Below are positions 22,394 through 23,236 of a stretch of 29,617 nt of DNA, one piece after another. The position numbers were made by a program, and so were the translations under genes. A model generated the notes under the pieces. That model did no database searches. It saw only the letters and a program-made list of their open reading frames with translations, and was not told the origin of the DNA. Position 1 is the first letter of the stretch. The number at the start of each line of letters is the position of its first letter. Origin of the DNA: Escherichia phage Midge; the sequence record PV287706.1. The stretch is one strand, 5' to 3'.

Positions 22394-23236
22394 TTAAACG
22401 TGTTTTTCCAATGTGAGAACTACAGACCCGGCAGGCTTGATGTCTGAAATATTGCATTCAAACTCAGCAGACTTATTAGACAACCTGACTTTTCCTCCGG
22501 GAAGACGAATTACATCAAAAACATCAAGAGCGCCGTCAATATCGATTAACCAGCGACCATTACTTATATTCGAAGCAGAACGGTCGACCAGCCAAGAGGC
22601 ACCAACACCTTCGACAAAAATCAACTCCTCGGAATCAGAAGGTATCATCGATGGGTCTGGATGCCATGCGCCAGCGTCCTTAAGCTCACCAGATTCAAGG
22701 CGAGATTTTTTTATCGTTGAAATGTCCGAAAAACCAGCCTCCTTACTTTCTCGCATCTTTCCCTTTCCGGTCGCTAACCATTCCAGCGATACGCCGGTAT
22801 CAAGCGCACAAGTAACAACCACGTCACCGGGGAAGAAATCTCGTCTGACCCAGGTACTAATAGTGCCTGAGGATATATCCAACAAATCCCCAAGCTCCTT
22901 TTGCATTGTAAAACCATATGCATCAAGGATGCGCCTTAAAACGGGTTTTCCACCACTCGCTAAAATCTCGTCATAAAGTGCCTTGCCTTTCAACGGCGAA
23001 GAATCTTGCAAATTCAAATTGGCAATTTGACCAGTCAGCAGCCAGTTTAAATCGGCCCCAGTATCTAATGAGCACTGAATGATAGCTTTACCGGGAAAGC
23101 TATTTCGTTGAACCCAAGTGCTGACGCTGTTTGACGGGACGCCAAGCACTTCCGCCAAAGCCTTTTGCGTGCTGACACCATACGCCGAACTTATCCGCTC
23201 AATCACATCTTGCGTATTCAAATCTTCATCATTCAT
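22394..23236 (-). CDS. cI: CI-type immunity repressor (phage 186 CI family) with tandemly duplicated N-terminal HTH domains
   Basis: 280 aa; two diverged HTH repeats (ISSAYGVSTQKALAEVLGVPSNSVSTWVQRNSFPG...LNWLLTG and ILDAYGFTMQKELGDLLDISSGTISTWVRRDFFPG...LEWLATG) followed by a 186 CI-like C-terminal domain (GRWLIDIDGAL...FECNISDIK). Confidence 0.8.
   Translation of the reverse strand: MNDEDLNTQDVIERISSAYGVSTQKALAEVLGVPSNSVSTWVQRNSFPGKAIIQCSLDTGADLNWLLTGQIANLNLQDSSPLKGKALYDEILASGGKPVLRRILDAYGFTMQKELGDLLDISSGTISTWVRRDFFPGDVVVTCALDTGVSLEWLATGKGKMRESKEAGFSDISTIKKSRLESGELKDAGAWHPDPSMIPSDSEELIFVEGVGASWLVDRSASNISNGRWLIDIDGALDVFDVIRLPGGKVRLSNKSAEFECNISDIKPAGSVVLTLEKHV

Follow-up and report, generated by a model that had tools for sequence, protein, structure and literature searches.

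A duplicated helix-turn-helix domain in the PSP3-type immunity repressor of Escherichia phage Midge and its two candidate classes of operator

The 29,617-nt stretch of DNA analysed here (sequence record PV287706.1, Escherichia phage Midge; hereafter the window) is a P2/186-like phage genome of 29.6 kb in which the int-to-ogr junction is intact; its cI gene encodes an immunity repressor with two helix-turn-helix (HTH) DNA-binding domains. cI opens the leftward lysogenic operon, ahead of int, and faces the apl-cII-fil lytic operon; the gene order around it, supported by Pfam matches for cII, DUF2511 and Ogr, is the same in PSP3, SW9 and 186. The gene product is 99.3% identical to that of Klebsiella phage RCIP0057 and 76.6% identical to PSP3 CI. 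The initial annotation, made from the sequence alone, had proposed a 280-aa CI-like open reading frame (ORF) here, had set it against a length of about 192 aa for 186 CI, and had attributed the extra length to a tandem copy of the HTH domain, with repeats at residues of about 10-70 and 100-160 followed by a 186 CI-like C-terminal domain. The reading frame is present as described, on the minus strand, and 186 CI measures 192 aa in its record.

The domain matches bear out the proposed duplication. Pfam family PF07022 (Phage_CI_repr) matches two separate stretches of CI (whole-protein E 5e-54) and PF16452 (Phage_CI_C) matches residues 175-272 (E 1.5e-21). When each repeat is scanned alone, the first (hereafter R1; residues 1-72) scores 88.2 bits and the second (R2; residues 95-160) 97.7 bits, both above the curated Phage_CI_repr cut-off of 22 bits. 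A BLASTP comparison of the N-terminal 85 residues with the rest of the protein aligns R1 residues 11-70 with R2 residues 99-158 at 48% identity without gaps, and because the E value of this self-alignment is 5e-22, the repeat is far beyond chance. R1 and R2 are 41% and 42% identical, respectively, to the N-terminal domain of 186 CI.

An AlphaFold2 monomer model built on 43 homologues, with a mean predicted local distance difference test score (pLDDT) of 79, contains a five-helix bundle in R1 (residues 8-19, 24-31, 37-43, 49-59 and 63-68) and another in R2 (96-107, 112-119, 123-131, 137-147 and 151-156), an extra linker helix (85-94), a beta-rich C-terminal domain and two disordered hinges (73-80, with low pLDDT, and 164-171). 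The second repeat is therefore predicted to adopt an HTH fold as first supposed, and the repeat limits given at the outset agree with Pfam and the model to within a few residues. In a Foldseek search with the model, the top match is 186 CI (2fjr, E 1.3e-17); the C-terminal domain aligns with 2fkd at a template modelling (TM) score of 0.89 and a root-mean-square deviation of 2.2, in keeping with the 186 CI-like C-terminal domain of the initial annotation.

These features place CI among the 186-type repressors, with one departure. No Peptidase S24 family occurs among its Pfam matches at E <= 1, which sets it apart from the self-cleaving LexA/lambda CI class defined by that domain, and the C-terminal domains of LexA and lambda CI are distant fold matches only (Foldseek E 1e-6 to 1e-3, 11-17% identity). 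CI combines the Phage_CI_repr N-terminus and the oligomerisation C-terminal domain of 186-type repressors, but has two HTH domains in 280 aa where the type has one per monomer in ~190 aa. With PSP3-type repressors it shares the order HTH-HTH-C-terminal domain, the R2 helix ISSGTISTWVRR and a variable R1. A phmmer search against the sequences of the Protein Data Bank places CI residues 97-273 and 186 CI residues 8-182 in one colinear alignment; R2, hinge and C-terminal domain therefore constitute a complete 186-like repressor, to which R1 (residues 1 to ~90) is, judged by this alignment, an N-terminal addition.

Table 1 Features of the cI region and related elements in the window (positions are those of the whole window).
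Feature	Positions	Strand	Basis or remark
Class-2 pB site, ACTTGCAAATGCAAAT	20455-20470		Over the -35 element and spacer of the ogr/B/pag late-activator promoter
cI immunity repressor gene	22394-23236	-	280 aa, PSP3-type double-HTH; ORF map, Pfam, homologues
186-type C-terminal (oligomerisation) domain, residues 175-277	22406-22714	-	PF16452; Foldseek 2fkd
R2, second HTH domain, residues 96-158	22763-22951	-	Pfam alone 97.7 bits; near-invariant
R1-R2 linker, residues 71-95	22952-23026	-	Conserved LKGKxLYDEI helix (85-94); DNA carries the FL-like class-2 site
Variable candidate immunity cassette, pR operators and R1 codons, ~330 bp	22975-23300		Sliding identity trough
FL-like class-2 site, TCTTGCAAATTCAAAT	23004-23019		Inside cI, R1-R2 linker codons 73-78
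R1, first HTH domain, residues 8-70	23027-23215	-	Pfam alone 88.2 bits; five-helix bundle; variable among relatives
Two class-1 operators at pR, ACTCAAAATCGATTTACAG and ACTCATTTTCGATTTAAAG	23246-23285		19-nt direct repeats, 21 bp apart; overlap pR
Putative pR, early lytic promoter, TTTACA-17 nt-TAAAGT	23258-23286	+	Consensus scan
Apl/Cox analogue, first lytic-operon gene	23350-23721	+	123 aa; phrog_3554 and weak Cox-like phrog_575 match
FR-like class-2 site, ATTTGATTATGCAAGT	23722-23737		Gap from apl-analogue stop to cII start
LexA box, TACTGTATAAATATACAGTA	28136-28155	+	Perfect match
tumA-like antirepressor ORF	28174-28356	+	60 aa; annotated tumA in PSP3
dinI-like gene	28360-28593		Follows the tumA-like ORF; split tum arrangement as reported for PSP3

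The two HTH domains are conserved to very different degrees. Among 43 double-HTH homologues, mean pairwise identity is 91% in R2 (and likewise 91% in its helix 2-3 region), 61% in R1, 68% in the C-terminal domain and 32% in the hinge. The R2 recognition helix, ISSGT[IM]STW[VI]RR, is constant in all 50 loci compared, while R1 displays at least 12 recognition-helix types across the same loci. The R1 helix of the window CI is VPSNSVSTWVQR, that of PSP3 is IAKHSVSGWVQR (type also written GIAKHSVSGWVQR) and that of SW9 is IH[AP]NNVSSWLAR (type also written GIHANNVSSWLAR); other types include IYANNISSWLAR, VPANNISSWIQR and IAPNNISSWQQR.

The variability of R1 continues into the adjacent control region. 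The spacer between cI and the apl analogue is 113 bp long and contains the putative pR, whose TTTACA and TAnAGT elements are kept in relatives. The class-1 repeats occur nowhere else in the window and overlap the -35 element and the spacer/-10 of pR; their halves are unlike (ACTCA ... TCGAT), and the first repeat includes the palindrome AAATCGATTT. To the left of the pR -10 element, the DNA of relatives differs by R1 type and carries type-specific A/T-centred palindromes; to the right, the leader and the apl-analogue gene are conserved. Sliding identity of the window against PSP3, SW9 and two further loci (L006 and L008) reveals a single trough spanning the pR operators and the R1 codons, with 10-66% identity in most bins and 70-80% in three isolated single-locus bins; identity is 80-100% immediately to the right of it and mostly 70-93% on its left side. 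By this measure the trough resembles an immunity cassette that can be exchanged. Identity also dips over a second, short stretch (22710-22764, CI residues ~158-175), which coincides with the hinge that joins R2 to the C-terminal domain and is disordered at 164-171 in the model.

PMC3675496 describes a 14-mer wheel of 186 CI that touches the pR operators with two-turn phasing and loops to the sites FL and FR. The 21-bp spacing of the class-1 repeats fits this phasing, and we infer that the window CI may form a comparable wheel. In Serratia prophages (L034-L042 and L051), a class-2-like site, ACTTGTAAATGCAAAT, lies ~50 nt upstream of cI, where it overlaps the pR -35 element and adjoins a type-specific palindrome, TCGCATTTTGCGA; from this arrangement, both heads may act side by side at pR in the Serratia R1 type.

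A second class of site has the opposite behaviour among relatives. The class-2 motif, the palindrome ACTTGCAAATGCAAGT, has only three occurrences in the window, one each at pB, within the linker codons of cI and where the apl analogue adjoins cII, and none of 100 shuffles matched the window's number of occurrences. The pB site lies on the promoter TTGCAA-16 nt-TATTAT (20457-20484) upstream of the ogr/B/pag late activator gene (20515-20733; Ogr_Delta in Pfam); it recurs at the equivalent place in PSP3, SW9, RCIP0057 and L006, and indeed in every locus that keeps the phage-form int-ogr junction. A position weight matrix (PWM) of the motif, scanned over 8.8-kb loci with a background of 71 matches in 452 kb (~1 per 6 kb), gives its best matches at the pB, in-cI and apl-analogue/cII positions in nearly every relative, the FR-like position being the top match in most of them; in PSP3 and SW9 the FR-like site reads ACTTGCAAAATCAAGT. 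The in-cI site is present in 44 of the 50 loci, mostly at +209. A shift of 8 bp puts it at +217 in both the window and L012, in another reading frame, so that it encodes NLNLQD there and ELANAN in the other loci; this difference in frame argues that the DNA motif, rather than the peptide, is under selection.

A group of uncultured phages whose CI has a single HTH domain links the class-2 motif to R2. The HTH domain of the single-HTH CI P0139 (loci L009 and L058-L088) is 77% identical to R2 and has the same recognition helix, and the P0139 group carries a perfect palindrome, AACTTGCAAATGCAAGTT, between the -35 and -10 elements of pR. The class-2 motif occupies this position in all 31 viral contigs whose single-HTH CI bears the helix LSSGTISTWVRR. 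Two pR-operator variants of the group, ACTTGCAAAATCAAGT and ACTTGCATAATCAAGT, are the FR-like sites of PSP3/SW9 and of L044/L045, respectively. The window therefore appears to hold two separate operator classes. The initial annotation had expected a different operator architecture or immunity specificity and had suggested looking for operator repeats in 23237-23349 and its flanks; class-1 repeats do lie within that interval and class-2 sites at its flanks (23004 and 23722), and the pairing of a variable pR class with an invariant pB/flanking class lends the expectation comparative support.

At 28136-28593, the window encodes a candidate SOS antirepressor. According to PMC3121763, the upstream half of the split tum of PSP3 carries the antirepressor activity. 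The TumA protein of the window is 100% identical in RCIP0057, SEN1, PSP3, SI22 and SW9 despite their differing R1 types, and no match to it at E <= 1e-3 was found in single-HTH 186-type phages. Since TumA is identical across R1 types, the antirepressor probably docks on an invariant part of CI, namely R2, the linker helix or the C-terminal domain. R2 is thus a possible TumA target, and such docking could contribute to its invariance.

Taken together, these comparisons lead us to favour, with some reservation, the reading that CI is a PSP3-type Eganvirus immunity repressor in which R1 reads pR and R2 reads the conserved sites. An old tandem duplication would have given a 186-like CI, consisting of R2 and the oligomerising C-terminal domain, a second, N-terminal HTH domain, R1. 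R1 would read the two type-specific operators at pR and so set immunity, and R2 would read the invariant palindrome at pB and at the FL-like and FR-like sites, where its binding would serve late-gene repression and looping. New immunities would arise by exchange of the ~330-bp cassette, in which R1 adjoins the pR operators and which could therefore move as a unit. The constant chassis would consist of R2 and the C-terminal domain, the pB and flanking sites, the Apl analogue and TumA, the SOS antirepressor.

Several points weigh against this division of labour. Its support is comparative throughout, and the covariation of R1 with the pR operators is confounded by physical linkage, both being adjacent on one mosaic block. 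The pR operators of several R1 types are not clean palindromes, and the sequence CGATC beside the pR -10 element is common to most R1 types. Only the pB site of the window is near-perfect, its degenerate FL-like and FR-like sites departing from the consensus by 3 and 4 mismatches. The assignment of R2 to the class-2 motif rests on one group of single-HTH phages; two more distant single-HTH CIs whose helix, GTVSTWIKR, resembles that of R2 without being identical (P0156 in L056 and P0147 in L057) lack the motif at their loci, a result that is itself uninformative. The model has a predicted TM score of 0.40, and the mutual arrangement of R1 and R2 is not readable from it. Finally, the invariance of R2 could instead, or also, reflect the invariance of TumA.

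This last point leads to an unlikely alternative, in which R2 is kept mainly as a docking surface for TumA or as a structural spacer and R1 alone reads DNA, at both classes of site. Every double-HTH phage of the collection, irrespective of R1 type, has an invariant TumA, which was not found in the single-HTH 186-type phages; the conservation of R2 exceeds what DNA binding alone would need, and 186 provides a reported precedent for one HTH domain reading two site classes (Shearwin, Dodd & Egan 2002, cited in PMC3675496). Yet a head with at least 12 recognition helices is an improbable reader of a motif that stays constant, and phages with an R2-like domain as their sole HTH have precisely that motif as pR operator. 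The direct repeats with unlike halves at the window's pR would fit another arrangement, namely an intramolecular pseudo-dimer in which R1 and R2 of one chain each take one half-site of a composite asymmetric operator, with no division of labour between promoters. The CGATC half beside the -10 element, invariant across R1 types as R2 is, and the class-2-like site that abuts the type-specific palindrome at the Serratia pR are both in line with such a pseudo-dimer. We nevertheless rate it as quite improbable: CGATC does not resemble CTTGCA, the half-site of R2-type single-HTH repressors, and falls to the conserved side of the mosaic boundary, so that descent alone may account for its conservation; furthermore, the class-2 motif forms symmetric palindromes at pB, FL and FR, with no R1-type half beside them.

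Two candidate elements were examined as R2 targets and rejected. CGATC abutting the pR -10 element was discarded as an R2 half-site on the grounds just given, namely its difference from the R2-type single-HTH operator and its position relative to the mosaic boundary. TGCAC-N5-TGCAC (~23307-23321), in the highly conserved leader (23287-23349), likewise differs from that operator and changes with the type of apl analogue. The leader elements could be pL or Apl-analogue sites, and TGCAC-N5-TGCAC more likely represents pL, leader or Apl-analogue sites than an R2 target.

The null hypothesis for any duplicated domain is that one copy has become a non-functional relic, the protein here working as an ordinary 186 CI; nothing positive speaks for it, and we regard it as very improbable indeed. 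Both repeats exceed the Pfam threshold by far and have a predicted fold, conservation extends through each type for R1 and through all types for R2, and the architecture has been kept across many Enterobacterales genera and hundreds of contigs, with at least three independent origins. Returning to the favoured division of labour, a broader version of it would hold that the dual specificity of 186 CI has been resolved in the PSP3 clade into two dedicated heads, with R1 and the pR operators as a plug-in module of ~330 bp on a constant chassis, a shared R2 that cross-represses heteroimmune phages and a single TumA that could induce them all. We advance this version tentatively and lean somewhat against it as a whole.

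The Apl/Cox analogue, which is conserved across R1 types, has no Pfam domain match. An ORF that overlaps the 3' end of cI (22047-22457) is an artefact of the ORF caller; relatives annotate a 112-aa DUF2511 gene, whose start corresponds to 22385 here. This DUF2511/YebY-like gene (22047-22385) has an N-terminus like a signal peptide and stands in a moron position, between cI and int, that is occupied by a WYL-domain gene in L007 and by a 322-aa gene in L138. In L057 (3001-6224), two CI-like genes (189 and 188 aa) flank GmrSD-type and HEPN-type defence genes.

The double-HTH form is widespread. All of the 120 best homologues in a collection of 5.8 billion proteins are 267-287 aa long; they come from Klebsiella, Enterobacter, Salmonella, Escherichia, Citrobacter, Cronobacter, Pantoea, Kosakonia, Lonsdalea and others, and one homologue cluster by itself is found on 737 contigs. 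A near-identical region is present in 124 of 5426 complete E. coli genomes. When R2 alone was used as query against 1.84 billion representatives at 50% identity and the best 150 were classified, 53 had a single HTH domain plus the C-terminal domain and 13 had two HTH domains plus the C-terminal domain; 25 further ones had two HTH domains with no C-terminal-domain match, many of them fragments. The initial annotation had allowed that the longer architecture might simply be the common form in the family: this holds within the PSP3 clade, where by these counts the double-HTH form is standard, but not for the family as a whole, in which it is a sizeable, recurrent minority. Within-protein identity between R1 and R2 is 30-48% in the PSP3 lineage, 67% in P0140 and 54-71% in P0168, P0169 and P0175, and on this measure at least three independent duplications are distinguished. 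Inspection of the P0140 locus (L138) revealed no clear repeated palindromes that would represent two operator classes.

Other arrangements of the same domain were also observed. On a European Nucleotide Archive metagenome contig (L011, 3713-4570), an R1-like HTH domain forms its own 69-aa ORF, in frame and directly upstream of a 189-aa single-HTH CI and separated from it by two stop codons and a non-homologous spacer; L045 encodes the fused 277-aa counterpart, with an almost identical R1 helix. P0148 (525 aa), P0214 and P0231 contain six, three and four Phage_CI_repr-like repeats, respectively, and P0200 (1019 aa) and P0209 (1170 aa) contain five such stretches each; none of the five has a CI C-terminal domain match.

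cI itself is an ordinary member of a PSP3-type CI subfamily that is abundant in the databases, and PSP3 CI (AAN08403, 286 aa, record AY135486) has been in GenBank since 2002, deposited as 'immunity repressor'. No description of the double-HTH architecture was found in the searchable literature (subscription-only papers lying outside that scope), nor was any functional study of PSP3-type CIs. Nilsson et al. 2011 (PMC3448106) note that the CIs of PsP3 and of prophage ΦECO3 are longer than 186 CI, a difference put down there to 'a longer C-terminal domain'. Annotations of PSP3-type CIs should instead give a duplicated N-terminal HTH domain as the source of the extra length. Two points appear to be undescribed so far: this origin of the extra length, and the comparative signs of two heads with separate operators and of a minimal swap cassette.

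186 CI is the textbook alternative to the lambda switch, a repressor whose single HTH domain puzzlingly reads two unrelated operators and whose wheel loops pR to flanking sites. If the two specificities are split between R1 and R2, pR binding would be separable from flanking/pB binding, and dozens of natural R1/operator variants would be available on one chassis. Because R2 and the pB, FL and FR sites are common to heteroimmune relatives, a resident prophage should repress the late-activator promoter of a superinfecting heteroimmune relative and bind its flanking sites, a cross-repression that would go beyond classical immunity; one antirepressor, TumA, could at the same time induce all heteroimmune types together. 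The system would then allow a test of heteroimmune prophage cross-talk through a common head and a common antirepressor, and orthogonal repressors could be engineered by swapping the 330-bp cassette. The recurrent duplications in other CI lineages would point to a general evolutionary route.

Among its closest relatives, the same double-HTH CI, 67-99% identical, is present in PSP3, SEN1, SW9, SI22, vB_EcoM-613R3 and RCIP0057, together with an identical TumA and with class-2 sites in the same three places (pB, inside cI and ahead of cII). PSP3 and SW9 differ from the window in R1 helix type and in the DNA of their pR operators. The P0139 single-HTH group differs more deeply, in that its CI has no R1 and its class-2 motif lies at pR itself rather than at flanking sites and pB.

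186 shares the PF07022 and PF16452 domains of its CI (192 aa; 2fjr, 2fkd) and the colinearity over window CI residues 97-273, the gene order (int-cI, pR, apl-type gene, cII, fil), the arrangement of operators in two classes, one located at pR and the second at pB and two flanking positions, and SOS induction through a Tum-type antirepressor, as predicted for the window. In the 186 record, three CI sites of one type lie at pR, and the other type (ATTCAC-N5-GTGAAT) lies at pB, at FL in cI and at FR at the apl end. The differences are that 186 uses one HTH domain per monomer for both classes of site whereas the window CI has two, that the 186 site sequences are ATTCAC-N5-GTGAAT and TCTCTCAATTGGGAGA, that the Apl analogue of the window is unrelated in sequence, and that Tum is split in the window into tumA and dinI. 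In the lambdoid phages, immunity swaps (lambda/434/P22) exchange the DNA-binding head of the repressor and its cognate operators as a mosaic block, one that carries the whole repressor, cro and both operators. Compared with the lambdoid block, the block that is exchanged here would apparently be confined to one of two heads and the pR operators, leaving R2, the oligomerisation domain and the Cro/Apl analogue in place.

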